A stretch of DNA of 64,000 bases from an uncultured cyanobacterium (GCA_963793425.1 CAWCAG010000005.1:1024001-1088000), one strand, 5' to 3'; positions 3,747 through 38,774 are shown, numbered from the stretch's first letter. The notes: a model not told the origin generated them from the sequence alone. Numbers and translations: made by a program.

Positions 3747-4259
3747 CTAATTCCTAAGTTCCTCTCCTAACGAACTTAAAAATTTCCCCGCAAAACCCAC
3801 AAAATCCCTTGTTGTGGTTGCATCGTCAAAATTAACTGGGTTTAAATAATGCCACTTTCCCTCTTTCAGCAAATCCCGCGTTAACTTTTCCCCTAAAGCT
3901 GTTTTTCCCTGCCCCGTTAATCCAGTGATGACCAATAAACGAATTTCATCTTGCAGCTTGAGTTTTAATTCCTTTAAAGTTTCTTCCCTGCCCACCCAAG
4001 TATCAAGAGGTTTAGGTAGTTCAGTTTGGTTATTAGTCGTTTCTTGAGCAGATATTTCCTGCCAATCTAAACCCAGCTTTTTAGAAATGTCTACAAAATA
4101 GCCAAAATCTACAGCCCTACCGTTAAGAAAGCTTTGTACCGTAGATTGTGAAACATCTATTTCAATAGCAAATTGTTTCTGACTGGGATAACCATTACGT
4201 TTAACAGCATCTTTAACTTGTTGAATATTATCAGGGGAAACCTTGAGAGAACGTCCCAT
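3747..4259 (-). pseudogene. Xre-like HTH fused to a truncated NB-ARC/STAND-like P-loop NTPase
   Basis: MGRSLKV..SQKQFAIEIDVSQSTVQSFLNG HTH; WVGREETL..LLVITGLTGQGKTAL Walker A; ORF ends before any Walker B. Confidence 0.75.
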
Positions 4260-4462
4260 TATTTAGCTTCTAATATGAAATACAAAAGAATCTGCTACCA
4301 ATAAATGAAATTAAGCTATTTGCTCTTAGCCATGAGGAAATAACCTTTGCTTAAACGATCCCATATCTAGATGCGCCCTACCACCAAGTTTATTTCCGAC
4401 GATAGGGCAACCCTTGAATAAATCAGCCAAGTATAAACAAGGTAGAGCGAAGCGGTTAGGAA

Positions 4463-4519
4463 GGGGTGTGGGGAAACACTTGTTTCCCTGCTGGGGGGTT
4501 TGGGGGGCTAGCCCACCAA
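4463..4519. repeat. G-rich double hairpin (REP-like)
   Basis: GGGAAACA/TGTTTCCC (4471-4488) and TTGGGGGGC/GCCCACCAA (4500-4519). Confidence 0.55.
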
Positions 4520-4580
4520 TAGAACTATACTTCCAACAGATTAACCTGAAAAAACTTATCTGTAGCATCGTTATTCCTAT

Positions 4581-4661
4581 CAGTTAACAGGTGGGCAAAA
4601 CTTGATGTTACTGGTAACAACCAAAGATTATGGTTTATTGCCCACCCTACTATGATAACTG
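4581..4661. repeat. GTAG-family REP-like inverted repeat
   Basis: GGTGGGCAA (4590) ... TTGCCCACCCTAC (4638-4650), flanked by CAGTTA/TAACTG. Confidence 0.65.
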
Positions 4662-4683
4662 TCAAATAAGGGTTACAGCCTTT

Positions 4684-4760
4684 CTCAACACGAACTCAAT
4701 ACAAACTCAACACACCTCAACACAAAATCAACATCCCTTTAAGCACAGAACTCAACACAG
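4684..4760 (+). promoter_or_regulatory. Phased 10-11 bp direct repeats (CTCAAyAC), putative operator array
   Basis: CTCAACACGAA CTCAATACAAA CTCAACACAC CTCAACACAAA ATCAACA, plus CTCAACACAG at 4751. Confidence 0.5.
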
Positions 4761-4800
4761 CAGGAATTTAGATGGGAATTGTAGATTTCAAAAAGCAAAA

Positions 4801-4944
4801 ATGAAAAATATCGAAGAATTAAAAACCCTTCTAGAATTACTAGTCATCTTCCTCACCTTCGCCGAATCACCTTTTACATTTGCGATCGCACTAATAGTCG
4901 TAGGCATTTACTTGATTATTCATAGCCTCCAACCCCTCAACTAA
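4801..4944 (+). CDS. Small hydrophobic (1-2 TM) protein, 47 aa
   Basis: MKNIEELKTLLELLVIFLTFAESPFTFAIALIVVGIYLIIHSLQPLN; internal ATG of track ORF 4630..4944, whose 5' part runs over repeats. Confidence 0.55.
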   Translation: MKNIEELKTLLELLVIFLTFAESPFTFAIALIVVGIYLIIHSLQPLN

Positions 4945-4998
4945 GAAAATATTGAATGTATTCTTAAAGCTAATAGCTAAAAGCTAACAGCTAACAGC

Positions 4999-6462
4999 TT
5001 AAAAAACATTAGGAACCCAATTACCATGCAAACCGTAAGGAATATGCTGTTTAAGATTAAGCTTGGCAACAAGATCAAGGTTACTAGCATCAAGAATAAT
5101 TAACTCAGAACGATGGCGATCGCCGTTATAAACTAGAGTCAGAATCCAACCCTCATCTTCTTGATAACTTTGGGGGTGAGGTACAAAAACAGGTTCGCTA
5201 ACAAAGCCGCTGGGGGCCGCACTCCAAAACTTTTCTGTTCCGGTGGTTAAATCTAGTTTGAGGATACCTTGTAAAGGTGCGTTGCCCTCTTTTTGTTCAG
5301 CAACACCTATAAATAAATAACGGTAGGAATGTCCGACATAATCAGGATGAACTTCAGGAAATTCGCAACAACGACTCAACAATAACTGACTATCAGTTAT
5401 TTTCTGTTCTAAATCTAAAGTAAAGCGCCACAGTTGTCCTGGTGCTAAGGTAGCAAAATCTACATCGCGATAATCCGCATCATTTTGTACCTGGGGAATA
5501 GAGTCATAGCAAATGGAGTCGAGATAAATTTTGCCGTTTTCCTCAAAAGCATTGGCATGATGAAAAACAAATCCTGCTTGGGTTTCCAGGACTTTTATCT
5601 TTTCCCCTGCTTTAGTATCACGAGGAATAACTATGATGCGAGTAGGGCTGTTGGCTTGAAAGTTAACACATTCTCCTGCCCCTTTAAACCCTAATAAAAA
5701 AGGTAGGGGATTGAAAGTAACAGGATTTTGGAAAAAGAGACAATAATTAGGGGTGATCGCAAAGTCATGAATGAAGGCAAATCCTGGTACGCTATGGTCG
5801 TGGCGACGTAGCAATTTCCCCGCAGAATCTAATTCATAAACGGTAATAGTTGTAGAAAGCCCAGGTTTGATAGCAAAATTAACTAAACAAGGCTCTCCAT
5901 TGTTAAACTGACAACTAGGATCAATCCAAGGATGAGCTGCAAAAGCATCTCCTGGTTGTAGAATGCCATCAAGATCATCTAAGCCCAAAGTATCTAAATT
6001 ACGAGGATCTAAGCGATAGGGTTGGGCTGCTTCCCAAAGGGCGAGGAGTTTCCCTCCCCAGTAAATAACGTTGGTATTGGCAATATTTTTGAGGCGAAAA
6101 TCAAAGGCATTGTTCCACCACCCACCGGGCTTTTGAGTACCGAAAACACCACGATAAAGAATTTTACCAGCTTCTTGTTCTTCGACAAAAGCTTCTGTAC
6201 GGACAAAACGGTTGCGGAAGTGTGCGCTTCCTTCCTGAAATGAAATAGCACAAACCATGCCATCACCGTCAAAGGGATGGCGTATGGGAGTACCGTGGAT
6301 GTCTAATAATCCTGGACCATTACGAAATAAAGTACCCTCAAGTTCGGTGGGAATTTCTCCTTCAATGTCATCAACCCAATAATCAGATTCTTGGAGTTGA
6401 GATTGATAACCTTGTTTCCATTGTTCAGGGTTATAGGATGTGGTATTTGCAGCTAGTTTCAT
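4999..6462 (-). CDS. Carotenoid oxygenase (apocarotenoid-15,15'-oxygenase-like)
   Basis: GTLFRNGPG, HPFDGDGM, FAAHP, FIHDFAIT, FHHANAFE, EFP, SEPVFVP and GLHG motifs of the RPE65/CCD family. Confidence 0.93.
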   Translation of the reverse strand: MKLAANTTSYNPEQWKQGYQSQLQESDYWVDDIEGEIPTELEGTLFRNGPGLLDIHGTPIRHPFDGDGMVCAISFQEGSAHFRNRFVRTEAFVEEQEAGKILYRGVFGTQKPGGWWNNAFDFRLKNIANTNVIYWGGKLLALWEAAQPYRLDPRNLDTLGLDDLDGILQPGDAFAAHPWIDPSCQFNNGEPCLVNFAIKPGLSTTITVYELDSAGKLLRRHDHSVPGFAFIHDFAITPNYCLFFQNPVTFNPLPFLLGFKGAGECVNFQANSPTRIIVIPRDTKAGEKIKVLETQAGFVFHHANAFEENGKIYLDSICYDSIPQVQNDADYRDVDFATLAPGQLWRFTLDLEQKITDSQLLLSRCCEFPEVHPDYVGHSYRYLFIGVAEQKEGNAPLQGILKLDLTTGTEKFWSAAPSGFVSEPVFVPHPQSYQEDEGWILTLVYNGDRHRSELIILDASNLDLVAKLNLKQHIPYGLHGNWVPNVF

Positions 6463-6503
6463 TGGCTATTAATAGTTTTTAAAAAGTGGTAGTAAGTTTT
6501 AAA

Positions 6504-7901
6504 TTAAATCGTTGGCACTAAAGGCTTTTCCAGATCTCCTTTAGTCTCATGTTCCTCTAACCCTTGCCTAACCAGGTTTTCTTTCTCCTCTTCAATTTTG
6601 GGATCACCTGATGGTAACCAGCCTAGAAATGGCAAAGGTAATAAGCTAGATAGGTTAACGATGACAACCAAAAGCCAAAGATTACTAAAATCCGTTTGCG
6701 TCACCCCCAAAAACTTTGTTAACAAAGCCCCCAACTCATGGGAAAGTAGCCCTGCGAGGTTAAAAACCGACATGAGGAGGGCAAATAAAGTTGCTTCCAC
6801 TCCCGCAGGACAAAGGCGGGCAGAAAGAACTAATACTGGCATAAAAGCTATTTGTCCCATGACGGTGAGGATGAGACTATCTCCTAAACTAAACCAATGA
6901 TCGTCTATGCCCAAAGTACGGTTAGCATGGGTGACTAAGAGTAAAGTTGTCATGCCTAAAACTGCTGAGATAACGGTACTCCAGCCAAAGATGGTTCGGA
7001 AGGAGACAGTTTTGAGGAAGCGTTGATATAACCAAATACCGAGTAGAGAAGCAAAACTTGTTACTAGGCGAACTCTACCTAAAAATTCTGGTTCAAATCC
7101 TAATTCATTAGTGACGAAGAAAAATATTGCTGATTCTCCCCCAGGAGTTGCTTGCCAAATAAAAATAAACAGGGTGGGCAACCAAATATACTTTTGAGTT
7201 ATGGCCGCCCATAACTGTCTAACTTGTTGTTTAGCCCCAGCTACATTAATTTTATGACTAGTTTTTTCTTCAACAATTAACCAAGCAACACCGGAAACTA
7301 TGAGGGGGAAAGTGGCAGTGATAGAAAAAACTGTTTGGTTACTGAAATGTTGCAGTAGCAAGCCGCTTAAGTAAGCAGTGGTTAACCCTCCTAATGCTGT
7401 ACAACTCCAGCTTAGAGATTGCAAAGACCCGGACTTTTCTAAAGATTCTTCCCTCGCCCTTTCTACCACCAAAGAGTCTACAATTACATCACTAATAGCC
7501 ATAGAAAGAGATGTAAACAAAATTGCCGTGGTAGCTGCCCAAGGACTATTAACCACTGTCCCCAAAGCTAACCAAGAAACTGCCCCCAAGATACCGGAGA
7601 TAATTAAGTAAGGGCGGCGGCGATAGCCAAATAAGGGTAAGCCATCAGAAATAAAGCCAAACAAGGGTTTTGTTACCCAAGGCAAAGAGGCAATACCCAT
7701 CAACGCAGCAACTTGGGCAGGGCTGAGGGCGAGGTCATCTTTAAGGAAAAAGCTAACAGCTAAACGTGCTAAACCGAGTATGCCTTGAACGAAATAAACC
7801 GTCATGATGGCAAGTAACTCAGGATTTGGTTCGTTGCCGAACAAAATCTTTTCTTTAATTAATTCTTTGAACTGACTGAGCCTAGGAGAAGAAGCTGTCA
7901 T
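6504..7901 (-). CDS. Folate/biopterin family MFS transporter (BT1)
   Basis: VYFVQGILGL, PWVTKPLFGFISD..GYRRRPY, LCPAGVEATLFALLMS; about 12 TM. Confidence 0.92.
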   Translation of the reverse strand: MTASSPRLSQFKELIKEKILFGNEPNPELLAIMTVYFVQGILGLARLAVSFFLKDDLALSPAQVAALMGIASLPWVTKPLFGFISDGLPLFGYRRRPYLIISGILGAVSWLALGTVVNSPWAATTAILFTSLSMAISDVIVDSLVVERAREESLEKSGSLQSLSWSCTALGGLTTAYLSGLLLQHFSNQTVFSITATFPLIVSGVAWLIVEEKTSHKINVAGAKQQVRQLWAAITQKYIWLPTLFIFIWQATPGGESAIFFFVTNELGFEPEFLGRVRLVTSFASLLGIWLYQRFLKTVSFRTIFGWSTVISAVLGMTTLLLVTHANRTLGIDDHWFSLGDSLILTVMGQIAFMPVLVLSARLCPAGVEATLFALLMSVFNLAGLLSHELGALLTKFLGVTQTDFSNLWLLVVIVNLSSLLPLPFLGWLPSGDPKIEEEKENLVRQGLEEHETKGDLEKPLVPTI

Positions 7902-8236
7902 GAATATTTTTTAAGTTTTATATCCTTTTATATCTTATACAGCTAATAGAGATTTCGGTATAGCTAGAAAATCAGAAATCTAACTGTTGAGAAAGAGCTT
8001 GGGCGGCAAATCTCTACCTACAGGATGAGAGTCTTGGTTTTTTAGGGAAACTTATATGTAGTTTGGGAAGAAAGATACAAGTAGATAATCAATCTTGGGG
8101 TGAGGCTAATATAGGGTGTGACCCTACATACTGGAAGTACTTTGAATAGGGACTTTTAATTCATTCGATCTTGGGCAACGAAACAATTAAACTACCTAAT
8201 TTAATTCCTTCTCAAAAATTGTAACTTTGTGCTACT

Positions 8237-10201
8237 GTGGTCAGATTTTTCAACTCGAAGAACTCTTTATCTACTTGGCTAACTGATAAAGTCAAAAATT
8301 CTTGGGACAATTTAGCCGAGCTGAAAATAGTTACCCTTGGTATACTGTTAATCTCCGGTTCCTTATTGGGTTTGCGCTATCTTGGTTACTCTCAAGCCCT
8401 CGAACTACTGGCTTTTGATCAGTTAGTCCGTTGGCAAAAAGATTTGCCCCCCGACCAGCGTATTTTATTAGTAACAATTGCTGAGGAAGATTTACGGCAG
8501 CAAAAAGACTGGCCGATTCCTGATTTAACCTATGCTCAAGTTTTAGAGAATTTACAAGCTTGGGATGCCAAAGTAATTGGCTTAGATATTTATCGCGATT
8601 TGCCTGTAGAAAAAGGTCGCACCGAACTTATTAAGCAACTTCAAGAGCCTAATGTTTTTGCTATTCGCAGTATTGATATTTTCAAAGGAACTCCTGCCCC
8701 TCCAGAGTTACCCCCAGAAAAAGTTGGTTTCAATGATATTCCCGTAGATCCTGATGGAGTGATCAGACGTAACATCATTTTTGCGATTCCTCAAGGAGAA
8801 GAGTTTTTGACTTCTTTCGCTTTACTTCTTGCCTCAGCCTATTTAGAAGACCAAGATATTAAACAAGAAGAAAGTGAAGAGAATCCTGAATATCTGCAAT
8901 TGGGGGAAGCAACCTTCATTCCCCTTACCCCTAATTCTGGTGGTTATCAAAATGTTGATGCGGGAGGCTATCAAGTTTTGTTTGATTACCGTAATCGCCA
9001 TCAAGTTGCCACAGAAGTCTCTTTTGATGATGTTGTCTTAGGAAATATTGACCCAGATTTAGTTAAAGATAAAATCGTGATTATCGGCAGCACTGCCCCT
9101 AGCCTTAAAGATGCTATGCTTACTCCTTATAGTAGAGGTTTGCTTGCTTCTGCCCAAATGCCTGGGGTGATAATTCATGCTCAATCAGTAAGCCAAATTC
9201 TCGATGCAGCCACCGGAGAGCGCCCTTTACGCTGGTTTTGGTCAGAATGGGTAGAAGGACTCTGGATTGTTGCTTGGGTGGCATTAGGAGGCGTTGTCGG
9301 TTGGCTATTGCGTCATCCTCTTTCTTTGACTATTAGTGCTGGGGTTGGCTTAGGAATTTTGCTATCTACGGCTACTGTTGTTTTTTTTCAGGCTGGCTGG
9401 ATACCTTTAGCTTCCCCCGCCATAGGCTTTTTCTTAACTATCGGGGTAGCAGTTACTTATCAATCTTATCAAGACCATCAACAACACCAGATGGTCATGA
9501 AACTTTTGGGACAAAATACTTCTCCTGAAATTGCTAATGCTTTGTGGCAAGGTAGAGATTATCTGTTGAAATCCGGCAAACTACCAGGGAAAAAGCTAAC
9601 TGCAACGACGATGTTTGTTGATATTAAAGGTTTTAGTACCATTTCTGAGAAAATGCCTCCGGAGAATTTACTAAACTGGCTGAATGAATTGCTTGATGTT
9701 ATGACCCGTGAAGTTATTAAACGGGAAGGGGCTATCAATAAGTTTACTGGAGATGGGTTGATGGCAGTGTTTGGTGTTCCTTTGTCTCATTTCCACACTG
9801 AAGAAATCCAAACAGATGCCCAACACTGTGTTAATTGTGCCTTGGCTATTAGCGATCGCTTAGAAGAAATGAATGCTAATTGGTTGAGGCGAGGTTTACC
9901 AGTAATTCAAATTCGCATTGGTATTTTTACTGGGGCTGTAGTGGTGGGTAGTTTGGGGGGGAAAGACCGTTTAGAATATGGTGTAATTGGCGATAGTGTC
10001 AATATTGCGGCACGTTTAGAAGGTTGTGAAAAAGATCGTCAGCCTAGTAATTGTCGTATTTTAATCGCGAAGGAAACTTTAGTTCATCTTAAAGAAAAGG
10101 TGGAAGTGGAAGCATGGGGGCTTATAGCTTTGAAGGGTAAGGAACAAATGGTTGATGTTTATAGAGTGACAGGTCGTCTTTTACCAAAGAGTAGAAATTA
10201 A
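8237..10201 (+). CDS. CHASE2-domain class III adenylate/guanylate cyclase
   Basis: CHASE2 (IGLDIYRD, DPDGVIRR, PGVIIHAQ), 3 TM, cyclase motifs FVDIKGFS, KFTGDG, IGDSVNIAARLE. Confidence 0.92.
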   Translation: MVRFFNSKNSLSTWLTDKVKNSWDNLAELKIVTLGILLISGSLLGLRYLGYSQALELLAFDQLVRWQKDLPPDQRILLVTIAEEDLRQQKDWPIPDLTYAQVLENLQAWDAKVIGLDIYRDLPVEKGRTELIKQLQEPNVFAIRSIDIFKGTPAPPELPPEKVGFNDIPVDPDGVIRRNIIFAIPQGEEFLTSFALLLASAYLEDQDIKQEESEENPEYLQLGEATFIPLTPNSGGYQNVDAGGYQVLFDYRNRHQVATEVSFDDVVLGNIDPDLVKDKIVIIGSTAPSLKDAMLTPYSRGLLASAQMPGVIIHAQSVSQILDAATGERPLRWFWSEWVEGLWIVAWVALGGVVGWLLRHPLSLTISAGVGLGILLSTATVVFFQAGWIPLASPAIGFFLTIGVAVTYQSYQDHQQHQMVMKLLGQNTSPEIANALWQGRDYLLKSGKLPGKKLTATTMFVDIKGFSTISEKMPPENLLNWLNELLDVMTREVIKREGAINKFTGDGLMAVFGVPLSHFHTEEIQTDAQHCVNCALAISDRLEEMNANWLRRGLPVIQIRIGIFTGAVVVGSLGGKDRLEYGVIGDSVNIAARLEGCEKDRQPSNCRILIAKETLVHLKEKVEVEAWGLIALKGKEQMVDVYRVTGRLLPKSRN

Positions 10202-10224
10202 ATTTCGTAGAAATTATTTAAAAA

Positions 10225-10674
10225 TTAATCTTCATTTTCAGGCAAAAAGTCAGCTTTCCAAACCTCTTCTGGACTAAAAGGACATTCTAAGGGAAAAATG
10301 TTTAAATTAATTCCTGTTTCCTTTGCTGCCCTATCACGAGCTTTCTGATAACATTGCTCAAAAGCCTCTGGTAGAAATTTCTTCAAACTAGGGCTATCTT
10401 CCAACAGTTCCTCTAAACAGATGCGCTGTTCGCTTATAGTGTTGCGCCAGCTATTACTCCTTTTACCAGGTTGATACATCCACTTTAGTAAGTGCATCAA
10501 TAGTATAATCAAGCGGCTTTTCAATTCCCGCTTTTCACTCCTACCCATACTTTCTACTTCTTCAATCAAGTTAACTAAATCTACCTCTGCAAGTTTCCTC
10601 TCCTGTAACTGTTGGGCAGTTACTTCAGTCCAGAGGTAAAAGTCTTGGTTATAAAGATTTTGGCTTGTTGTCAT
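10225..10674 (-). CDS. DUF29 family protein
   Basis: LYNQDFYLW, NLIEEVESMGRSEKRELKSRL..HLLKW, SPSLK, FPLECPF. Confidence 0.92.
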   Translation of the reverse strand: MTTSQNLYNQDFYLWTEVTAQQLQERKLAEVDLVNLIEEVESMGRSEKRELKSRLIILLMHLLKWMYQPGKRSNSWRNTISEQRICLEELLEDSPSLKKFLPEAFEQCYQKARDRAAKETGINLNIFPLECPFSPEEVWKADFLPENED

Positions 10675-10819: not shown

Positions 10820-11461
10820 CTATAAAGTGCTTTTCAAAATGTAAACCAACACTGTACAAAATTCCTCATATTGCTCATTATCATCCGATTTTTCATAACC
10901 CTCAATTAACTTTTGTTTTTCTTCCTCAGTCAGGTCATCAATTACATCCAAGATACTCTCAATTGCTTGAGAGCGCATACTTTGCAATAAATCAATGTTG
11001 AGTCCAAGCTTATCAATAGTTGTGGCGGCAGCAACTTGTTTATTTAATTCTTTGCTGGGAAGCATTTGCCCGTCATCTGTGTAGATAAAAAAGTCACCAC
11101 AGTTTTTACTTAAAGGAGAAATCATGAGATTTTCATCATACCAATCTCCTTTTTTGACTCCACAATGCTGAGGTTCTTTAGGTGCTGTTTCTTTCTTACA
11201 TGAAGCCAGCATATTATTATAATTCAGAGCTAGATTAGGATATAACTTTCTAGGTTTGAGGTGTTCAATATGACTCGTATTCTTCCCTATCTGTCTACCA
11301 CAATAGCAACAGATATAACCCTGTTCCTTTAGCAAAAATTCGTGAACAAGAGGCTTTTCTTTCTTTTGCAAGTTATTCCAACTAGGTTGCCAATTCTCAT
11401 CTGCTAACTCTTTCCACTGAGCAAATTCTTCAGGTTCATTGCCTTTATTAATAAATTTCAT
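10820..11461 (-). CDS. HNH endonuclease, TIGR02646/PtuB-like (retron/Septu-associated type)
   Basis: LLKEQGYICCYCGRQI..HIEHLKP..LNYNNMLASC..HCGVKK; 4-bp overlap with the upstream ATPase. Confidence 0.88.
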   Translation of the reverse strand: MKFINKGNEPEEFAQWKELADENWQPSWNNLQKKEKPLVHEFLLKEQGYICCYCGRQIGKNTSHIEHLKPRKLYPNLALNYNNMLASCKKETAPKEPQHCGVKKGDWYDENLMISPLSKNCGDFFIYTDDGQMLPSKELNKQVAAATTIDKLGLNIDLLQSMRSQAIESILDVIDDLTEEEKQKLIEGYEKSDDNEQYEEFCTVLVYILKSTL

Positions 11462-30690: not shown

Positions 30691-32094
30691 ATGTCAACCA
30701 GGCTGCTAGTGTTACTCAATTCTTTTAAAGCAAGGTTATCAAGGCGCGTTTCCCTTTGGGTTTTTGCTAGTATTGTGGTGATTGAAGCCATCATTCTTGT
30801 TCCTTCTTATCATAAGCGTGAACAGGATTTACTGGCGCAACAATCAGAGATTTCAGAAGCGGTAATGACCTCTATTACCGATTCCTACCAAGTAGATGGG
30901 AATAAAAAGACTTTTTTTAACTTACTCCAAAACTTCACCCAAGACTCTCTGTTTTTAGGAGTAGCTGTTTACGATAATCAAGGGCAGTTAGTTGAGGTAT
31001 TTGGTGAATCACCTCAATTAACCTACAGGGAATTACAGGAGGCTATGGTCAAAAAGCGCCGTAGTAATGATGGTAATCGCTATGATATGGTCTGGTATGC
31101 CCCCTACCAAGAACAAGAATATATTGTTATTATTCGCTACGATACTTCTTTTATTCAAAGGAATCTGTCTGCTTTCACTCTACGCATAGCAGCTTTGGTT
31201 TTGCTTATTTCTGGCTTTGTCACCCTTGTCACGATGATAGTTTTAGGAGATAGAGTAATCGCTCCGGTTGTGCAACTTCGCAATGACCTGGTAACGTTAG
31301 GAGAAATAGTCAGCCAAGAAAACTCTCAGCAAAACTTTTCTTCCCTTTCTTGCCAACGCAACGATGAATTGGGGGAAGTTATCAGCGCATTTAAGCAAAT
31401 GTATGAGCGCATCTCCCAAGAAATTGCTGAACGTAAAAAAACTGAAGCTGTTTTGCGTATTGAACAAGAAAAATCAGAAGCTTTGTTATTAAATATTTTA
31501 CCCAAACCTATCGCTGAACAATTAAAAGAGGGTAAAACTAATATTGCTGATGGCTTCGCTGATGCCACAATTCTCTTTGCTGATTTGGTGGGCTTCACAG
31601 AATTATCTACCACTATATCTCCCAGAAAACTTGTTGAATTGCTTAATGTAATTTTCTCAGAATTCGATACTCTCTGCGATCGCCACGGCTTAGAAAAAAT
31701 AAAAACTATTGGTGATGCTTATATGGTTGTAGGAGGGCTTCCCATGCCCCGTAGCGATCACGTTGAAGCCGTAGCTGATTTAGCTTTAGAAATGCAAACA
31801 ACTATAAAGCATTTAGCTAGTCAACTAGGACAGGAATTAAGAATCCGTATTGGCATTCACACAGGGGCTGTGGTAGCAGGAGTAATTGGTAAAAACAAAT
31901 TTATTTACGATCTTTGGGGCGATGCTGTCAACATAGCCAGTCGTATGGAATCTCAAGGACTTCCCGACTGTATTCAAGTTACTGCTACTATTTATGAATC
32001 TTTGCAAGAGCAATATCTTTTAAAAAAACGAGGATTTATTAAAGTTAAAGGTAAAGGGGAAATGCTTACTTATTGGCTTGTGGCTAAAAAATAG
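30691..32094 (+). CDS. Membrane HAMP-domain class III adenylate cyclase
   Basis: 2 TM, HAMP (NDELGEV), LLLNILP, FADLVGFT, KIKTIGDAYM, YDLWGDAVNIASRMES; start uncertain (30661/30685/30691). Confidence 0.9.
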   Translation: MSTRLLVLLNSFKARLSRRVSLWVFASIVVIEAIILVPSYHKREQDLLAQQSEISEAVMTSITDSYQVDGNKKTFFNLLQNFTQDSLFLGVAVYDNQGQLVEVFGESPQLTYRELQEAMVKKRRSNDGNRYDMVWYAPYQEQEYIVIIRYDTSFIQRNLSAFTLRIAALVLLISGFVTLVTMIVLGDRVIAPVVQLRNDLVTLGEIVSQENSQQNFSSLSCQRNDELGEVISAFKQMYERISQEIAERKKTEAVLRIEQEKSEALLLNILPKPIAEQLKEGKTNIADGFADATILFADLVGFTELSTTISPRKLVELLNVIFSEFDTLCDRHGLEKIKTIGDAYMVVGGLPMPRSDHVEAVADLALEMQTTIKHLASQLGQELRIRIGIHTGAVVAGVIGKNKFIYDLWGDAVNIASRMESQGLPDCIQVTATIYESLQEQYLLKKRGFIKVKGKGEMLTYWLVAKK

Positions 32095-32108
32095 CTAATA
32101 GCTAATTC

Positions 32109-32633
32109 TCAGTTTTGATTCTTTTTCCTCGAACTCTTTCTTTGGGGTTTCAATAGCAAAACCATAAATTTAGCATACCGCCTGTTTCTTTCTCCAGCTA
32201 AACTAACTAATTGTTCAGTAGACATAACAGTACCATCAGGCATTTTTGTACCCCTCAAATTAGCATCGGTTAAATCAGCATCAGTGAGATTAGCCCCCGT
32301 CAAATCTGCACCTTGAAGATCCGCTTCCCGCAAATTAGCTGCACATAAATTAGCCTGAGTTAAATCTGCCCCAGCTAAATCTGCTGCCATTAAGTTGATG
32401 CTGCTTAAATTAGTACTTCTCAAGTTAGTGTTCGTTAAATTAGCTCCTTCTAAAATTGTCCCTTGTAAATTAGCTTCCTGTAAATCAGCATTTTTTAGGT
32501 AAACCCAACTCATAGTTTCTCCGCTGAGGTTAACTTGCCGAAAATCCCTTTCTCCCGCTACATATCTTTTGATAAGTAGTTTAGAAATAACTTGGAGAGA
32601 TTGATTATTACAATTTTTTTCGATGGCCATCAT
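32109..32633 (-). CDS. Pentapeptide repeat protein
   Basis: RYVAGERDF, ADL/ANL repeats, MPDG. Confidence 0.88.
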   Translation of the reverse strand: MMAIEKNCNNQSLQVISKLLIKRYVAGERDFRQVNLSGETMSWVYLKNADLQEANLQGTILEGANLTNTNLRSTNLSSINLMAADLAGADLTQANLCAANLREADLQGADLTGANLTDADLTDANLRGTKMPDGTVMSTEQLVSLAGERNRRYAKFMVLLLKPQRKSSRKKNQN

Positions 32634-32911
32634 AGGGCATTTCTCAGACTTTAGTTATTTGTCTAGAAATCCATTATCGAATGGGGACATTTGCGATCGC
32701 GTCTGCTTAATGTCCATCTTATGTATAACTTAAATTTATCTTTGAAAAGAATATATATCCATATATTTTATATTAACGGCGGAAAAACCAAAATGCCAAG
32801 GCCGCTATTACAGAAGATTAATATTTTTTAGAGAATTTTAATAATAATCGTCTTCAACTAAGCAATTAGTTGATTACGATAGTAGGTCATCAAACAGGGA
32901 TTTTTTTGACA

Positions 32912-34309
32912 ATGCAACTTTCAAAATCAACTCCAACCAACACCCATGCTGTAGTCATAGGCGGTAGTATGGCTGGGTTATTATCTGGTCGAGTATTGGC
33001 TGACCACTTTGATAGAGTAACAATTATAGAGAAAGGTTACTTTCCGGAAAAACCAAGTTTCCGCCCAGGAGTACCCCAATCTCCCCATCTCCACTTTCTC
33101 CTCATGCAGGGTCGTATCATCCTTGACAAGCTTTTTCCTGGCTTTACCGAAGATTTAATGGCTGCTGGGGCCCAACTTTTGGATATGACAGCAGATGTTG
33201 CTTGGTTGAAACCTTTTGGCTGGGCAGTGCGCTTTCCCTCAGATTTCAATATTCTCAGCCTCAGTCGGTCTTTATTAGATTGGTATATCCATAAACGTCT
33301 GTTAGCTTTGAAGCTTGTTAACTTCCTAGAAGGAGGTTCTGTTACCGGCTTACTATCCCAAAATGATGGCATAGTAACAGGTGTATCAGTTCGCATTCGC
33401 GATCGCTCCTCACCAGAAAATAGTCGCCAAGAGGAAATCCGGGCAGATTTAGTCGTTGACGCTAGCGGTAGAAATTCTAAAACCCCCCAATGGCTAGAGT
33501 CTTTAGGCTATCAAGCCCCTAAAGAAGCTCTTGTAAATGCCCATCCCGGTTATGCTAGCTGTACTTACCAAATTCCCTCTGGATTCAAAGCCGATTGGAA
33601 AGCTGTCTATTTACAAGGCTCTCCCCCAAAACAACCCCGTGCAGCCATACTTTACCCTATTGAAGGCGATCGCTGGATAGTTAGCACCATGAGTATTGCT
33701 CCTGACTATCCCCCTGGAGATGAAGCTGGCTTTCTAGAATTTCTTAGTAAACTAGAAAGCCCCATCCTCTACGACACATTGAAAAATGCCCAGCCCCTTT
33801 CTCCTGTTGTTACTTACCGCCCCTCTGGAAACCGTCGGCGTTATTATGAACAACTTCCTAAACAACCAGAAGGATTTATTGTTACCGGAGATTCTGTTTG
33901 TACCTTCAGCCCAGTTTATGGCCAAGGTGTGACAGTCTCTGCTCTTGAAGCTATAACTTTAGGGCAATGCTTACAAAATGGTTTAGCGGGTGTAGAGCGG
34001 CGCTTTCAAAAGGAACTCGGTAAGGTGGTTACCGGCCCTTGGCTAGCTGCAACCACTCAAGATGCCCGTTATGACGGAGTAGAAGGCAAGTCCCTAACTT
34101 TCAAAGAGCATTTGCTGCAAGGTTATATGGATAGGGTGGATGAATTGGCTACCACTAATCCTGATATTTGCCTGAAATTGTTTGATGTGATCCACATGAT
34201 TAAGTCTCCCGACAGTTTGTTGGAACCCGCTTTAGCTATGCGAGTTTTGATGCAGGCTTTAGGAAACTTTCGCTTTGAGAAGGGAAGTTTGCAAGAAAAG
34301 CAGGGTTAG
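32912..34309 (+). CDS. FAD-dependent monooxygenase/oxidoreductase (epoxidase/hydroxylase-like)
   Basis: AVVIGGSMAGL, RPGVPQSPH, ADLVVDASGR, GDSVCTFSPVYGQG. Confidence 0.85.
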   Translation: MQLSKSTPTNTHAVVIGGSMAGLLSGRVLADHFDRVTIIEKGYFPEKPSFRPGVPQSPHLHFLLMQGRIILDKLFPGFTEDLMAAGAQLLDMTADVAWLKPFGWAVRFPSDFNILSLSRSLLDWYIHKRLLALKLVNFLEGGSVTGLLSQNDGIVTGVSVRIRDRSSPENSRQEEIRADLVVDASGRNSKTPQWLESLGYQAPKEALVNAHPGYASCTYQIPSGFKADWKAVYLQGSPPKQPRAAILYPIEGDRWIVSTMSIAPDYPPGDEAGFLEFLSKLESPILYDTLKNAQPLSPVVTYRPSGNRRRYYEQLPKQPEGFIVTGDSVCTFSPVYGQGVTVSALEAITLGQCLQNGLAGVERRFQKELGKVVTGPWLAATTQDARYDGVEGKSLTFKEHLLQGYMDRVDELATTNPDICLKLFDVIHMIKSPDSLLEPALAMRVLMQALGNFRFEKGSLQEKQG

Positions 34310-34332
34310 TTTTGTCGAGGATGTAAGTTTTC

Positions 34333-34395
34333 TTGACATTAATATTCAATAATTATAAACTCATTTGGCACTAGCTTATTGAGAATTTTCTCTAA
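34333..34395. promoter_or_regulatory. Fur-family-like boxes upstream of the multicopper oxidase
   Basis: TTATTGAGAATTTTCTCTAA (34376) and TTGACATTAATATTCAATAA (34333); a related TTATTGACAAT lies at 35422. Confidence 0.45.
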
Positions 34396-34400
34396 CAATT

Positions 34401-35408
34401 ATGACCGTAGATAAGAACTGGTCATCACAGCCTTTCAGTCGCCGACAAGTTTTGCAATGGAGTTTGTTGGGGGCTGGTGGGTTAGGAACAATGGCCACTG
34501 TTAGCTATCTTCGCAGTTCCAGTTCATCTTCTGTCAGAATTCCTCTTATTTCCGAAGAGTTATCTGATGCTGGTAATGGAATCAGCCCCCTCCAAATCCT
34601 CAGAGAGTTTGACTGGGGGACTTTGAAGCGAGAAAATGGCCGTACAGTTAGGGAATTCCAAGCTGTTGCTAACAATAGCACCATTTATTTGAACAGTGCT
34701 TTACCTTTTAAAAGTTGGAACATTAATGGTAGAGTGCCGGGACCAACCTTTCGGGCTAAGGCAGGAGAAAGGATACGAGTCATTTTCAATAACCAAGATG
34801 GCCATTCCCATACCATGCACTTTCATGGCATCCACCCAGCAAAATCTGATGGGGTTGAACCTGTTCGTCATGGCAAAATAGCGATTTATGAGTTTGAGGC
34901 TGAACCCTATGGTGTTCAGCTTTACCACTGCCACATAGCCCCCGTTACACGCCATATTGCTAAGGGGCTTTATGGTATGTTCATTATTGATCCCCCAGAA
35001 GGTCGTCCCCCTGCTGATGAAATGGTGATGGTGATGGGAGGATATGATATTGACAATGACGAAAAGAATGAACTTTATGCCTTCAACGGCATTCCCAACT
35101 ATTTTCGTGACCATCCTATTCCTATTTACCAAAACCAGCTTGTTCGCCTTTATGTGCTGAATATGATTGAGTTTGACCCGGCGGTAACTTTTCATATTCA
35201 TGCTAATTTCTTTCAGGTTTATCGTACAGGGCGCTCCCTCACTCCCAATGAAGAAACTGATGTGATCACTATGGGAACCGCAGAACGGCACATACTAGAG
35301 TTTAGCTACCCTTATCCAGGAAAATATATGTTTCATCCCCATCAAGATATTATTGCCGAACATGGTTGCATGGGGATGTTTGAAGTGATTAAGAGCAATA
35401 ACCAATAA
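34401..35408 (+). CDS. Tat-exported two-domain multicopper oxidase
   Basis: SRRQVL Tat motif; HTMHFHG, YHCH..H..GLYG, FHIHAN, FHPH copper ligands. Confidence 0.9.
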   Translation: MTVDKNWSSQPFSRRQVLQWSLLGAGGLGTMATVSYLRSSSSSSVRIPLISEELSDAGNGISPLQILREFDWGTLKRENGRTVREFQAVANNSTIYLNSALPFKSWNINGRVPGPTFRAKAGERIRVIFNNQDGHSHTMHFHGIHPAKSDGVEPVRHGKIAIYEFEAEPYGVQLYHCHIAPVTRHIAKGLYGMFIIDPPEGRPPADEMVMVMGGYDIDNDEKNELYAFNGIPNYFRDHPIPIYQNQLVRLYVLNMIEFDPAVTFHIHANFFQVYRTGRSLTPNEETDVITMGTAERHILEFSYPYPGKYMFHPHQDIIAEHGCMGMFEVIKSNNQ

Positions 35409-35494
35409 AAATTTTTCTAACTTATTGACAATATCTCTTATTAATTTTACTTTAATTAAAAGTCCTGTTGAAATTATTTTTAAATCTCGAACTC

Positions 35495-36346
35495 ATGAAA
35501 AAACTTAAACCCTTAGAACTGTTCTTAACTGCAAGCTTAGCTGTGAGTTTAACGGCTTGCGGTGGGGCTGATACTCCAGGAGGTGAAGATGGGGGAGTGA
35601 CGGAGGAAATAGAAGAAACCGTTGATGAAGGTGGAGAAGGTGGAGAAGGCGGGGAAGGTGGGGAAGGTGGGGAAGAAGGACACTCTGAACACTCTGCTGC
35701 CAGTAGTAACCCCGACGTTAATTACATGGTTTCTTTAGGGTTAATGAAGGGTCACATGATGGTGGCGAAAGAGTTACTAGATGCAGACAAACCTGAAGAG
35801 GCTGACCCCCATATTGGGCATCCAGTTGAGGAAATTTATGGCGATATTGCAGGAGAATTGGCAGAACGCAACGTTGAGGAATTTAAAGGAACTCTCAATG
35901 AACTCCATGACTTAGTTAAGACAACACCCCAAGCCCCTGAAGTGGGTGAAAAATACCAAGCTGCCATGGAGAAAGTTGATGCTGCGATCTCCGCAATTCC
36001 AGAAGAACAATTGAGTTCTCCTCAATTTGTCTTAGAATCTATCAACGGTATGCTAGCAGTAGCCGCAGAAGAATATGAAGCTTCCCTAGCTGATGGTAAG
36101 TTTGTTGAACTGATCGAGTATCAAGATTCTAGGGGATTTGTACTTTATAGCCAACAACTCTTAGCAACAGTAGATGAGGAACTTTCAGGGCAAGCCCCAG
36201 AAGCACTCCAAACAATCCAAGTATCCCTCAGCGAGTTAACCAAGGCTTGGCCTTCTGTAGATGCCCCAGAAGGCCCTGTGTTAACTCCGGAGAAAGTTTT
36301 TGAATTGGTAGAAGAAATTAAAGCAGCATCTGACGGTGTGAGTTAA
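35495..36346 (+). CDS. Lipoprotein with GGE repeat and His/Glu metal-binding helical domain
   Basis: Lipobox LTAC; (EGG)x5; GHMMVAKELL..PHIGHPVEEIY; EYQDSRGF. Confidence 0.75.
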   Translation: MKKLKPLELFLTASLAVSLTACGGADTPGGEDGGVTEEIEETVDEGGEGGEGGEGGEGGEEGHSEHSAASSNPDVNYMVSLGLMKGHMMVAKELLDADKPEEADPHIGHPVEEIYGDIAGELAERNVEEFKGTLNELHDLVKTTPQAPEVGEKYQAAMEKVDAAISAIPEEQLSSPQFVLESINGMLAVAAEEYEASLADGKFVELIEYQDSRGFVLYSQQLLATVDEELSGQAPEALQTIQVSLSELTKAWPSVDAPEGPVLTPEKVFELVEEIKAASDGVS

Positions 36347-36377
36347 TCGGCAACAATAATCTACCATCCTCTATGAT

Positions 36378-37115
36378 TTAAAGTTCTTGCTGGGTAGGAC
36401 GAATAATTATCTCGTTAACATCAACATCCCCAGGTTGTTCGAGGGCATAAGTAATTGCCCGTGCAATTCCATCAGCATCTATAGCTACGGAATAAAGTTC
36501 ATTAACATTTTTAGCTGTTTCTTGATCAGAAATTGTGTTGGTTAATTCCGTGTCTACTGCCCCAGGAGAGATATTGGTGGAGCGAATTTCCCCATTAGAT
36601 TCCAATCTGATTCCTTCAGAAATTGCTTTAACAGCGAATTTGGTCGCACAATAAACCGTCCCCCCCGGAAAGACTTTATGTCCTGCCACTGAGGAGATGT
36701 TAACGATATGACCAGATTTTTGCTGTCGCATCACTGGCAATACTGCGGCAATCCCGTACAACACCCCTTTGATGTTGACATCGACCATTTTCTCCCATTC
36801 ATCCACCTTAATTTCATCTAAAGGTGATAAGGGCATTAAACCAGCATTATTCACTAAAACATCTATACGGCTATAAGCTTCCTGGGTTGCTTTAGCTAAG
36901 GCTTCTACAGCAGAGCGATCAGTAACATCTGTTAACTGATATTTAGCTGTACCCCCGTCTTTTTCGATGGTAGAAACTAATTCTTTGAGGCGATCTTCCC
37001 GTCTAGCCGCAAGCATTAACTTAGCGCCGTTTTTAGCTAATCTACGGGCAGTAGCTTCACCAAGTCCGCTACTTGCTCCTGTAATAATCACAACTTTATT
37101 TTCAATTTCAGACAT
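36378..37115 (-). CDS. SDR family oxidoreductase
   Basis: TGASSGLG, NNAG, YCATK. Confidence 0.93.
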   Translation of the reverse strand: MSEIENKVVIITGASSGLGEATARRLAKNGAKLMLAARREDRLKELVSTIEKDGGTAKYQLTDVTDRSAVEALAKATQEAYSRIDVLVNNAGLMPLSPLDEIKVDEWEKMVDVNIKGVLYGIAAVLPVMRQQKSGHIVNISSVAGHKVFPGGTVYCATKFAVKAISEGIRLESNGEIRSTNISPGAVDTELTNTISDQETAKNVNELYSVAIDADGIARAITYALEQPGDVDVNEIIIRPTQQEL

Positions 37116-37125
37116 AGTTAATCTT

Positions 37126-37593
37126 TTAAGCGTTAGCTACTAACTGGCGTATTTCATCATTAACCAAAGGATAAAGCAAATCGTATACTTTGTGGTGAGT
37201 ATTCCTGGCTGCAAGCAACAAAGGTGTTTCTCCGGCGCTCCAAGCATTAGCATTAGCACCAAATTCTAGTAAGATTTGTACAACTTCCTCATAACCCTGG
37301 TTAGAAGCCGACATCAAAGCTGTCCAACAATCTTCTTCATAAGCATCAACTTCTGCCCCAGTTTCCAGCAACAAGCGAACAATTTCTTGATGTCCTCCGT
37401 TAGCCGCTTCGTGTAGAGGCAGACAGTTAAAACCATTGTTCACCTTAGCCCCAGCAGCAATTAATTCCTGCACTATTTCTACTAACCCTTGTCTGGCTGC
37501 AACAACTAAAGCTGGTTTCTCATACCAAATGGAAGGATTAACCTTTGCCCCCAACTTAAGCAGGGTTTGCACGGCTTGCAGGTTTTCACTCAT
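37126..37593 (-). CDS. Ankyrin repeat protein, probably 5'-truncated
   Basis: PLHEAANGGH..LL, TALMSAS, TPLLLAA repeats; the first repeat (TPLIAGVMSENL) begins in frame upstream of the ATG. Confidence 0.75.
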   Translation of the reverse strand: MSENLQAVQTLLKLGAKVNPSIWYEKPALVVAARQGLVEIVQELIAAGAKVNNGFNCLPLHEAANGGHQEIVRLLLETGAEVDAYEEDCWTALMSASNQGYEEVVQILLEFGANANAWSAGETPLLLAARNTHHKVYDLLYPLVNDEIRQLVANA

Positions 37594-37868
37594 AACCCCA
37601 GCGATGAGGGGTGTGACAGTTTCTGATGTTTCAGTAAAATATTCTTCACTTTGTTTTGATTAAGCCATTGGAACAAAATAAAGAATAAGCGAATTAGTGC
37701 GATCGCAATTGCAGCTTCTGGATTTAGCCAGCTTATCAGGGTAATTGTCGTGATGGCGATCGCTTTTAAAATCGAGGGATGAATTTTAGGTTTCTTGGCT
37801 GGTTGAGGTTGTTTGACAGCAGGAATAACGATTATAATTTTGGTTTCGGGTTGTTTTGTAGGTTTCAT
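37590..37868 (-). CDS. Small protein with a Pro/Lys-rich N-terminus and hydrophobic hairpin
   Basis: MKPTKQPETK...ILKAIAITTITLISWLNPEAAIAIALIRLFFILFQW; ATG at 37868. Confidence 0.6.
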   Translation of the reverse strand: MKPTKQPETKIIIVIPAVKQPQPAKKPKIHPSILKAIAITTITLISWLNPEAAIAIALIRLFFILFQWLNQNKVKNILLKHQKLSHPSSLGL

Positions 37869-37931
37869 GAGTTTGTTGGATTTGTGTTTCAACAATTACA
37901 ACGCTACAAGCTTTAAAATTGAGGCGAAAGA

Positions 37932-38057
37932 GCGAGTAAATGCGAGTAGTTTGTTAGGGCGGGTTTATTTGGTTTAATGTTGATCTCACGATTGGACTTC
38001 AAACCCGCCCCTACTGTTGCAACATTTTAGGACTGTCACGCCACTACAAATACTCGC
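37932..38057. promoter_or_regulatory. GCGAGTA repeats flanking a GTAG-family REP hairpin
   Basis: GCGAGTA at 37932 and 37942, inverted TACTCGC at 38051; GGGCGGGTTT/AAACCCGCCC(CTAC) 10-bp stem at 37957-38014. Confidence 0.55.
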
Positions 38058-38108
38058 GCACTTATACGCATTGTTTCGTTAAATTAGAGGAAGTTTTACT
38101 GGCTAGCT

Positions 38109-38774
38109 ATGAGTGGAAACAAAAGACGAGGCGGTTATCTGGCGACGGCGGAAGGGGTAAAGAAACTCAAAGAAGCAAAGCGAATCAAAAAGTACACTTA
38201 TGAGCAAATTGCAGAAGAAGCCAAGGAAACAGAGGATAAAGTTAAACGTTTGTTTAATCCTCAATGGGGCAATGGTAAATATAAAGTTGGGGAAGAAGCT
38301 GTTCAAGCTATCTGCAATGTATTGAATTTAAAGCCAGAAGAAATTGTTAGTGATTGGTATCCCTTAGAGATTACTTCAGATGAATCGCAGGTAATTACAA
38401 TAAATCAAAAAAAAACCTATTGGCGTAGTGGGGTGGTTTTGGCAAATGAAGGTAATTTGGCTTTGGTTAAAGCAGACAAGGAAGATAAAATTATTAAAAT
38501 TCGTGTTAGTGGCAAAACCAATACAAGACGCAATCTTTTAACAGCAATTCGTTCCCAGTTTGACTATATTCATGAAACTATTCCTGGTATCGTACCAGTG
38601 GAAAAAGTTCCGTTGATAGAACATCCAGAAATCATTTTGGACTATCAAGAATTATTAGGTTTAGAGGCAATGGGAGAAACAGATTATCCTATCGGTAAAC
38701 TCAGAAAGCGTATACCGTTGAAGCAATTGCTTGATGGTATCGAATCTCTAGGGAATCGCCCTCAAACTTTATAA
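38109..38774 (+). CDS. Xre-like HTH fused to the C-terminal COR-like domain of Roco proteins
   Basis: [75 protein letters not shown]-like tail. Confidence 0.7.

Follow-up and report, generated by a model that had tools for sequence, protein, structure and literature searches.

Two probable decayed copies of a conserved cyanobacterial module pairing an HTH–NTPase gene with a divergent small membrane-protein gene

The 64,000-nt stretch of DNA analysed here (the window) comes from an uncultured cyanobacterium whose genome, G000, measures 5.28 Mb, and it holds two sites, at 3747–4944 and 37590–38774, where a gene for a helix-turn-helix (HTH) protein lies divergent from a short open reading frame (ORF) for a hydrophobic protein. 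The two sites are probably decayed copies of one conserved cyanobacterial two-gene module, in which the HTH protein is of the nucleoside triphosphatase (NTPase) switch type. This judgement covers the proposed mechanism and blends two others: the anatomy (deletion remnants, conserved module, phased repeat arrays and repetitive extragenic palindromic (REP) elements) is held with high confidence, and the regulatory mechanism is given only slightly better than even chances.

As read from the relatives, the intact module consists of a gene for a small two-helix membrane protein (about 45–75 aa, families small1 and small2) divergent from an HTH gene, the product of which has an N-terminal XRE-type HTH followed by an NTPase switch (NB-ARC, NACHT, AAA_16, AAA_35, iSTAND or a Roc-COR GTPase) and, usually, by a repeat sensor (TPR, HEAT or LRR); the spacer between the two genes typically has 130–300 bp, with two to six direct repeats phased at 10–11 bp. 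The preliminary description of the window had reported the two-site layout, and every element that it named is present. Other genomes bear out its main points: the divergence of a small membrane ORF from the HTH gene is a conserved unit in both families, direct repeats at a 10–11 bp phase are a family-wide feature of the spacers, and the cassette of HTH and small ORF is grafted onto different NTPase and sensor modules. Its view of the two HTH proteins as purposeful fusions, one to a P-loop start and the other to a COR tail, has to be given up, as both are leftovers of internal deletions in full-length genes.

The analysis applied Pfam, TRF, BLASTP, hhalign, Foldseek, PADLOC, Rfam and NCBIfam to the window and its relatives; the main references were a genome of the same genus (G027) and one from another family of the same order (G159).

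Two internal-deletion remnants

The HTH gene of the first site (HTH1; 3747–4259, minus strand) encodes 170 aa, namely an N-terminal XRE-like HTH, a linker and the Walker A motif only, and it is the internal-deletion remnant of an HTH-NB-ARC-TPR gene. In G027, the homologous region is 75% identical to the 170-aa protein and lies in an 898-aa open frame, with the gene itself being 897 aa long; the full-length protein has the HTH, NB-ARC/AAA_16 (NB-ARC positions 8–221) and seven TPR_12 matches in Pfam, together with a weak match to TPR_MalT. On the DNA level, nt 1–505 of gene 1 correspond to nt 1–520 of the G027 gene, and nt 506–569 to its nt 2634–2697; the loss of 2113 nt is not a multiple of three, and the resulting frameshift leads to a stop codon (3747–3749) almost at once, two codons past the junction between 3755 and 3754. 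Behind the junction, the 3' end of the ancestral gene persists out of frame (3704–3754, minus strand), with 94% identity to 11359–11409 of the G027 locus (L047), which are the final codons of the 897-aa gene.

The domain searches on the 170-aa ORF agree with this picture: HTH_3 scored 22.8 bits, borderline with respect to the cut-off of 23, and the AAA_16, nSTAND6 and NB-ARC profiles were matched over their first ~45–63 positions only. The translation has the Walker A P-loop expected of a STAND protein (GLTGQGKT), and it lacks both the rest of the NTPase core, with Walker B, the helical and the winged-helix domains, and the C-terminal sensor.

The region of the HTH1 helices (4106–4176; gene nt 84–153) diverged strongly from G027, with flanks that are 82–92% identical at the DNA level, and the ratio of non-synonymous to synonymous substitution rates (dN/dS) was 0.48 in the segment just past it (nt 151–252), compared with 0.14–0.19 in the other HTH segments; this divergence could stem from a conversion event with a paralogue, or from diversifying selection acting on the specificity for DNA.

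As for the second site, the HTH gene (HTH2; 38109–38774, plus strand) encodes 221 aa, made of an HTH and the last ~117 residues of COR-B (Pfam, E = 8.5e-23 over positions 29–145 of the 145 of the profile); it is the internal-deletion remnant of an HTH-LRR-Roc-COR gene, and its product is no longer a Roco protein. The matches to HTH profiles, HTH_31 (E = 0.011) and HTH_19, were weak. The N and C parts of the product have matches of 77% and 87% identity, respectively, ~1.7 kb apart within one 808-aa frame of G027 (protein, 798 aa), and in G159 both ends of the 221-aa protein likewise occur in one frame, of 845 aa. Global DNA alignment matched nt 1–276 of gene 2 to the same positions of the G027 reference, and nt 295–666 to its nt 2026–2397, with the junction zone at 38385–38402; here, the loss is of 1731 nt (577 codons) and the frame is kept. 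The full-length relatives read HTH-LRR-Roc-COR-A-COR-B in Pfam, and the LRR, Roc and COR-A parts, present in G027, L061, L062, L065 and L066, fall inside the 1731 nt missing from the window; the Roc domain followed by COR-A and COR-B that marks a Roco protein is thus reduced in the 221-aa product to COR-B positions 29–145.

The junctions at this second locus are not artefacts of this one assembly, since they are reproduced in separately assembled contigs: the region 37000–39000, or most of it, is present without joints in Logan contigs from four DNA runs of one study, three of which may be the source of the assembly, and the contig of run X4 spans 37336–38555.

The structure predicted for the 221-aa protein has two folded domains and a disordered linker at residues 84–106. 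The HTH2 helices were placed at 14–27, 31–38, 42–49, 62–71 and 76–79, with a predicted local distance difference test (pLDDT) score above 90, and Foldseek matched the HTH2 model to C.AhdI, SinR, ClgR and CapH-N, with target-normalised template modelling (TM) scores of 0.6–0.72. The C part matched the COR structures of the Chlorobium tepidum Roco protein (3dpt and 3dpu; E = 3.7e-8 with 3dpt, 35% identity). A complex prediction with two copies of the 221-aa protein scored 0.20 against a mark of 0.42, and it was used neither for nor against dimerisation.

A second short form of the HTH-COR-B type, of 200 aa, occurs at L074; it has a different N junction, and among full-length proteins it is closest to L061 and not to that of G027, so that the form arose independently in the window and in L074. 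Other short or truncated HTH–NTPase forms were noted at L060, L063, L069, L151, L155 and L163 and, together with L074, they include HTH-LRR only, HTH-COR-B, HTH only and a truncated AAA_35; their recurrence reflects either frequent decay or the usefulness of sensor-less forms.

Small membrane proteins, phased spacers and exchangeable partners

The small gene of the first site, small1 (4801–4944, plus strand), encodes 47 aa; a conserved (E)SP separates two hydrophobic stretches, a pattern taken to indicate a membrane hairpin. Searches with this single sequence returned small1 alone; the family surfaced after homologues were spotted upstream of HTH1-family genes, and a profile of seven sequences then found it in 44 of the 401 genomes of the order, belonging to 24 of 142 genera. 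Searched from this side, 24 of the 28 best small1 loci outside the genus have a divergent HTH1-family gene, at a distance of 134–324 bp.

Regarding small2 (37590–37868, minus strand), it has 92 aa counted from its ATG, longer than the 73–75 aa that are the norm of its family, and it is also a predicted membrane hairpin. The extra length is a 19-aa tail, due to a neighbouring deletion that took out the stop codon, so that the end of small2 now overlaps by 4 nt the ankyrin-repeat ORF next to it (37126–37593, minus strand). This third deletion removed from the window the counterpart of 3745–4846 of L039, shortening the ankyrin gene from 511 to 155 aa. The protein collection holds 55 clusters of small2, mostly of 73–75 aa, which have no Pfam family and are called 'hypothetical' where they are named at all; the core conserved in the alignments consists of two hydrophobic stretches flanking the invariant Pro of an NPE turn, and the predicted structure has helices at residues 31–48 and 52–85.

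The two small ORFs appear to be genuine genes under purifying selection: compared with G027, dN/dS was 0.15 for small1 (40 codons, with 13 synonymous and 9 non-synonymous changes) and 0.18 for small2 (73 codons), both obtained at dS of 0.5–0.7, and the segments of the HTH genes gave 0.14–0.19, bar the one mentioned above. The concern that the small ORFs might prove not to be conserved can be set aside, given that both belong to conserved families.

The pairing of small2 with HTH2 was followed from both ends. A profile of the HTH2 domain, built from six closer sequences, was searched against public genomes and 22 loci were taken; upstream of the HTH gene, 14 of them show a divergent ORF resembling small2 at E below 0.01, and one further locus has a fragment. 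Among the seven loci without it, L068 has only 255 bp of upstream DNA, L067 and L069 have close HTH2 domains (73–74% identity), and the remaining four (L076, L078–L081) have the most distant HTH domains. In the opposite direction, the small2 profile found 28 of the 401 genomes, and, of the 25 small2-like loci that were new, 14 face a divergent gene of the HTH1 or HTH2 family no more than 1.3 kb away. Weak small2-like hairpins often stand beside HTH1-type genes, so that the pairing crosses the two families. A cruder count, of any divergent small hydrophobic ORF upstream, gave 12 of 26 HTH1-family genes compared with 129 of 645 background genes, and it has only suggestive value, as the background was taken from a single genome and related loci are not independent.

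A third family of small membrane proteins, of ~106 aa, was observed divergently upstream of an HTH2-like gene (L057 6036–6356, in G200), and also upstream of HTH1-family genes in L088 (G119) and L109 (G137); modules of this type may thus have a third family of partners.

The phased repeats are a hallmark of the spacers of the module. In the spacer of the first site, an array at 4684–4759 repeats CTCAAyAC with an 11-bp phase (GTrTTGAG on the other strand, core TTGAGTT) and is a candidate operator of the HTH1 family; TRF described it with period 11 (4.6 copies, score 65) and with period 21 (score 74), and it is partly conserved in G027. TRF listed 49 rows for the window, this array among them, and most of the rows are 7-bp repeats. 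In the other spacer, the conserved box AGAGCGAGTA-AATGCGAGTA (37930–37949) has two units phased at 10 bp, with GCGAGTA at 37932–37938 and 37942–37948; a third unit and the CGCAYTG box, which G027 has, are missing because of a 61-nt gap. An inverted copy of GCGAGTA (38051–38057) belongs to the promoter-proximal box upstream of HTH2, ATACTCGCGCACTTATACGCATTGTTTCGTTAAATTAGAG (38050–38089, plus strand), and boxes like GTACTTATACGCAYTGTTTCGYTAAAGTAGAG adjoin the HTH2 start in the loci of Roco type; at L066 (2928–3319), the HTH2-proximal box is duplicated, and 7-bp repeats (CCCACTA) lie between the copies. The genome-wide counts of the repeat words are near chance (158 versus 137 expected for CTCAACAC, 221 versus 205 for CTCAATAC, and 484 versus 457 for GCGAGTA), and their significance lies in the conservation of position and phase in other genomes, not in their frequency.

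This conservation was measured as the best self-similarity lag of each spacer, testing lags from 4 to 20. For small1-HTH1, the set comprised 18 spacers, from 16 loci plus the window and G027, after dropping eight near-identical loci (L119, L120, L122, L124–L127 and L128); the best lag was 11 bp in 14 of them, 10 bp in three and 6 bp in one, and 11 of the 18 spacers outdid shuffled versions of themselves at p ≤ 0.015. The control consisted of 600 segments of this genome without ORFs (130–330 nt), of which 21 had 11 bp as their best lag, 25 had 10 bp and 147 had 7 bp; thus, a lag of 10 or 11 bp occurs in 17 of 18 spacers versus about 8% of the controls, where 10 bp alone accounts for about 4%. 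As for small2-HTH2, the best lag was 10 bp in 8 of the 10 spacers left after removing four near-duplicates; individually these signals are weak (shuffle p 0.005–0.9), and in five of the eight the signal sits at the AGAGC...CGAG[CT]A box. AGAGC and CGAG[CT]A each occur in 13 of the 14 small2-HTH2 spacers, where the distance of each to the start of small2 is constant; the enrichment of exact k-mers in these spacers was marginal with respect to shuffles.

The repeat units of the small1-HTH1 spacers, including those of other genera, have the common core YYGASTT, of which the CTCAAyAC of the window is the complement, and the letters flanking it vary between the subtypes of the recognition helix, which fits the idea that each HTH may read its own array. 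In the boxes bound by MalT and in SARP repeats, several asymmetric boxes likewise stand in direct repeat, about one helical turn apart.

The two HTH families are remote homologues within one superfamily: BLASTP between the two window proteins found no similarity, and the comparison of the family profiles with hhalign gave a probability of 97% (E = 9.9e-11, 66 columns). The HTH is of the XRE/Cro type, with the five helices in the HTH2 model, borderline profile scores for the window proteins and scores above the cut-offs for the relatives (HTH_3 at 31.0, 28.7 and 27.7 bits; HTH_26 at 28.8). The sequence search of the PDB with the HTH2 profile had as its top match 8vd6, which was dismissed as compositional, its listing being that of a designed repeat protein.

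What follows the HTH varies, and the partners could be catalogued as the preliminary description had proposed. Next to small1, the HTH1 partners are AAA_35 (413–431 aa), AAA_16 (356–405 aa), iSTAND (364–371 aa) and NB-ARC-TPR (849–899 aa), besides stubs of 170 and 84 aa; those of HTH2 are LRR-Roc-COR, LRR-Roc-COR-TIR, NACHT-HEAT, NACHT-NCC-H-NCAB1 and nSTAND1-WD40, with HTH-LRR only and HTH-COR-B as short forms. The combination of HTH, NTPase and sensor in one protein is found in the full-length relatives, not in the two genes of the window.

Candidate mechanism, known systems and rival explanations

In the mechanism proposed for the intact module, the HTH–NTPase protein would be a signal-gated transcription factor, following the logic of the STAND regulators MalT, AfsR and GutR. 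Upon sensing its signal, it would bind nucleotide and then oligomerise (STAND forms) or dimerise (Roc-COR forms), so that several HTH domains would meet the phased repeats from the same side of the helix; this would switch the transcription of the small membrane-protein gene and, probably, that of the regulator gene as well. The small protein could be a membrane-active effector, a silenced toxin or the precursor of a signal. The stubs of the window would have lost the response to the signal, and they would act at most as constitutive DNA binders.

Several elements of this scheme have precedents. MalT, GutR and AfsR are described as STAND NTPases that regulate transcription in PMC13581612 and PMC7159879, the latter of which also presents COR as a dimerisation domain; variable effector domains on LRR-Roc-COR proteins are reported in PMC8195603. 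HTH domains occupy effector or adaptor positions of conflict-type NTPases in Kaur et al. 2020 and 2021 (PMC7159879, PMC8195603) and in Kibby et al., who count HTH or transcription-regulatory domains among the N-terminal effector/adaptor domains of bacterial NACHT proteins (bioRxiv 10.1101/2022.07.19.500537).

Like MalT, AfsR and GutR, the full-length relatives (G027, L156 and L160) join an HTH, a STAND NTPase and a C-terminal repeat sensor in one polypeptide. In contrast to the LuxR-type HTH of MalT or the OmpR/SARP type of AfsR, however, their N-terminal HTH is of the XRE/Cro type and of a cyanobacterial family of its own; the same HTH also occurs on non-STAND or atypical modules (Roc-COR GTPase, AAA_35 and iSTAND), and what is conserved next to it is one gene for a small membrane hairpin instead of a catabolic or biosynthetic operon. 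The relatives of gene 2 have the LRR, Roc, COR-A and COR-B domains of bacterial Roco proteins, such as that of C. tepidum and those of the 'AP-GTPase' conflict systems of Kaur et al.; the N-terminal XRE-HTH, with the transcriptional output that it implies, had no counterpart in the parts of this literature that were compared, and the window protein differs further in lacking LRR, Roc and COR-A. Similarly, HTH2 relatives with HTH-NACHT-HEAT and HTH-NACHT-NCC-H-NCAB1 resemble the NACHT/NLR-related proteins of Kibby et al., the available text of which mentions no divergent small membrane gene, no phased repeats and no antiphage test of HTH forms, while its supplements may list such architectures. 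The preliminary description knew of no described system with this layout, and the literature search, which covered titles, abstracts and selected passages, likewise found no account of the divergent small membrane gene, of the phased repeats or of an HTH–Roco regulator; the module is seemingly an undescribed variant of the STAND-type transcription switches.

Its interest lies in the fact that bacterial NLR/STAND and Roco proteins have been studied mainly as sensors on enzymatic killing domains, whereas a large family here bears an HTH instead. The module pairs a conserved candidate operator, the phased repeats, with a conserved single candidate target, the gene for the small membrane hairpin, which makes it a directly testable input–output unit in a class of proteins where neither signal nor output is otherwise known; if the mechanism is true, a function would be assigned to two 'hypothetical' families of small proteins. 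The sensor-less remnants of the window and the independent short forms found elsewhere are natural mutants for the role of the HTH alone and, even with the mechanism wrong, it remains useful that annotation of the window should record its two HTH genes as remnants left by deletion and its hairpins as REPs.

Several points weigh against the reading of the window as two decayed copies of a regulatory module. The proposed connection between HTH protein, repeats and small gene draws on conserved position only, and no RNA runs holding 37100–38800 were listed. No HTH gene was found within the ~1.5 kb available at 4 of the 28 small1 loci and 11 of the 25 small2-like ones, several of the latter being broken frames or contig ends; the HTH1 family is common, with as many as 16 matches in one genome and presence in 122 of 201, compared with the 44 of 401 genomes that have small1, which therefore pairs with a subset of HTH1 only. 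Homology between small1 and small2 was undetectable (hhalign, 1.2%), and the co-variation of repeat unit and recognition helix, proposed in the preliminary description together with the co-occurrence of small ORF and phased repeats, is apparent but confounded by relatedness; the co-occurrence itself holds. In the window, the array of the first site is now 425 nt (4260–4684) away from the HTH1 start codon because of insertions and, given the element (IS630-like) at the same place in G027, any shared divergent control has already been broken in the genus. Finally, the label 'decayed' is itself debatable: relaxed selection on the gene-2 remnant was not seen in a comparison of little power (the branch of the window has 14 synonymous changes and 10 non-synonymous ones, that of G027 has 11 and 9, and 60 sites are ambiguous), so that either the deletions are recent or the remnants still function, and the label does not settle which. 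The stubs and small genes free of signs of relaxed selection would fit recent deletion and retained function alike.

A more ambitious version of the mechanism can be drawn, which we regard as rather doubtful: the module would represent a widespread, undescribed cyanobacterial class of NLR-like switches with transcriptional output, in which one XRE-HTH superfamily is combined with exchangeable NTPase sensors (NB-ARC-TPR, NACHT-HEAT, AAA_35, iSTAND and Roc-COR), each with its own phased array and with the dedicated two-helix membrane peptide as the real effector; in response to infection or damage, this peptide might, for instance, depolarise the membrane or make the cell kill itself. The Roc-COR forms would then be the first Roco GTPases to serve as transcription factors, and the HTH-COR-B form would be a ready-made dimeric repressor. 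With the sensors deleted and both the HTH stubs and the peptide genes under purifying selection, the stubs may have been kept as constitutive repressors of a toxic peptide.

That same persistence of open stubs and small genes under purifying selection after sensor loss would also suit a toxin–antitoxin or abortive-infection pair, in which the hairpin is a membrane-damaging toxin and the HTH protein is mainly its repressor or antitoxin; the NTPase–sensor part would lift the repression on infection or stress, and the stubs would be retained to silence the toxin gene. Small two-helix membrane proteins are typical toxins of such a size, and the nearest sequence matches of the HTH1 profile in the PDB, weak as they are (E = 0.02–0.05), are the HipB and PezA antitoxins. 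Sensor-less short forms arose independently (L074, 200 aa; L163, 170 aa; L151, 84 aa; L060; L063; L069), and the partner domains NACHT, iSTAND, TIR and Roc-COR are those of the conflict systems in PMC7159879 and PMC8195603. However, purifying selection may merely pre-date recent deletions, and the comparison of 10 proteins with PADLOC-DB found no known defence system, giving generic TPR/HEAT repeat models and weak P-loop matches only, and nothing for the small proteins or the window remnants; on balance, such a pair is an unlikely account of the module.

Still less probable is peptide signalling as in the Rgg/SHP or RRNPP pairs. There, the small ORF would be a secreted pro-peptide sensed by the TPR, HEAT or LRR part of the HTH receptor, and the layout of these systems is indeed similar, as an XRE-HTH regulator with TPR-like repeats stands opposite a divergent small ORF for a hydrophobic product; full-length relatives also gave weak matches to RNPP_C in Pfam (L156, E = 1.4e-5; L160, E = 4.3e-4) and, far under the cut-off, to AimR in NCBIfam. 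In both small families, however, the conserved part is a two-helix hydrophobic hairpin (41–75 aa) and not a C-terminal mature peptide, and the N-termini do not resemble signal peptides; many partners are devoid of a repeat sensor (HTH-AAA_35, HTH-AAA_16 and HTH-iSTAND, of 360–430 aa), and where repeats exist an NTPase switch stands between them and the HTH, unlike in RRNPP receptors. The RRNPP systems of one published account, according to its abstract, belong to Firmicutes, a different phylum. Finally, a chance resemblance, with no functional unit and with spurious small ORFs, could be suspected in a genome that is strewn with short tandem repeats and with REP hairpins (50 copies of one family and 24 of the other), where ~20% of ordinary genes have some divergent small hydrophobic ORF by the crude criterion, and where the repeat words occur at chance frequency; but the homologues of the small ORFs keep a constant length across genera, their dN/dS values are low, their linkage to HTH genes is tight when searched from the side of the small ORF (24/28 and 14/25), and the 10–11 bp phase is found in 17/18 and 8/10 spacers versus about 8% and about 4% of controls. 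These comparisons suggest that chance is largely refuted, and we consider it very improbable.

REP hairpins, other repeats and neighbouring genes

Each spacer of the window also has a REP hairpin, with a GTAG-type end beside a G+C-rich stem. The one at the first site, a REP-like hairpin of family A (GGTGGGCAA ... TTGCCCACCCTAC; 4590–4650), has its arms at 4590–4598 and 4638–4650; that of family B (GGGCGGGTTT ... AAACCCGCCCCTAC; 37957–38014) has them at 37957–37966 and 38001–38014, in the variable middle of the spacer. The end of family A, GCCCACCCTAC, has 50 copies in the genome versus 0.7 expected, and that of family B, CCCGCCCCTAC, has 24 versus 0.5; such strong over-representation marks them as dispersed repeats that are not specific to the module. 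Among the hairpin copies listed, stem and loop length are held in common, and in family B, with at least 24 copies, the loop sequence is shared as well. Only 5 of 74 REP 11-mers fall in open frames of at least 150 aa, though such frames make up 81% of the genome.

An ORF of ~195 aa resembling the Y1 transposase of the REP-associated tyrosine transposase (RAYT) type (G000, C5:515687–516270) is flanked by inverted copies of CCCGCCCCTAC at 515634 and 516287, and it contains a match to PF01797 (C5:515894–516157; 27.9 bits, cut-off 23), of which the genome has five more; the RAYT flanking is established for family B. GTAG-type ends, 24–50 mostly intergenic copies and inverted copies around a RAYT-like ORF are traits of REP/RAYT (REPIN) systems. 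The family A hairpin is at the same site in G027, and in other genera the same spacers are free of these hairpins and have unrelated hairpins or 7-bp repeats instead. The hairpins are thus ordinary dispersed (selfish) REP elements, inserted in the window/G027 lineage only and outside the module: the preliminary description had labelled them correctly, as their multiple copies, intergenic placement and RAYT flanking now show, and it was mistaken in counting them as part of the module.

A copy of another dispersed and tandem repeat, at 4260–4580, is inserted between the HTH1 start and the ancestral spacer and is likewise outside the module. Its family counts more than 30 copies in the genome, of about 150–310 bp, with head-to-tail arrays at C9:48917–50937, C1:274010–275184 and C7:405629–406852 (periods of ~203, 311 and 152 bp, respectively); the copy in G027 is downstream of the HTH1 gene and in the opposite orientation. 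Rfam returned nothing in the window at the gathering score, and nothing in 3500–5100 at E up to 1; possible natures of the family are a satellite, a non-coding RNA family or a miniature inverted-repeat transposable element. In G027, the same position between small1 and the full-length HTH1 gene is taken by a different insertion (L047 7528–8660), with two ORFs of 208 and 147 aa that we take to be IS630-like from their translations.

As for the neighbours of the two sites, the ankyrin-repeat ORF beside small2 (155 aa) is the C-terminal remnant of the 511-aa gene, as indicated by Pfam Ank matches and by G027; it was considered as a third member of the module and rejected, as no homologue of it adjoins small2 in 25 other loci and it is a neighbour in this genus only. 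Tandem repeats of 7 bp fill many intergenic regions of the window, and a small ORF of the UPF0175 family (3344–3589; Pfam, E = 8.9e-21) adjoins the gene-1 remnant.

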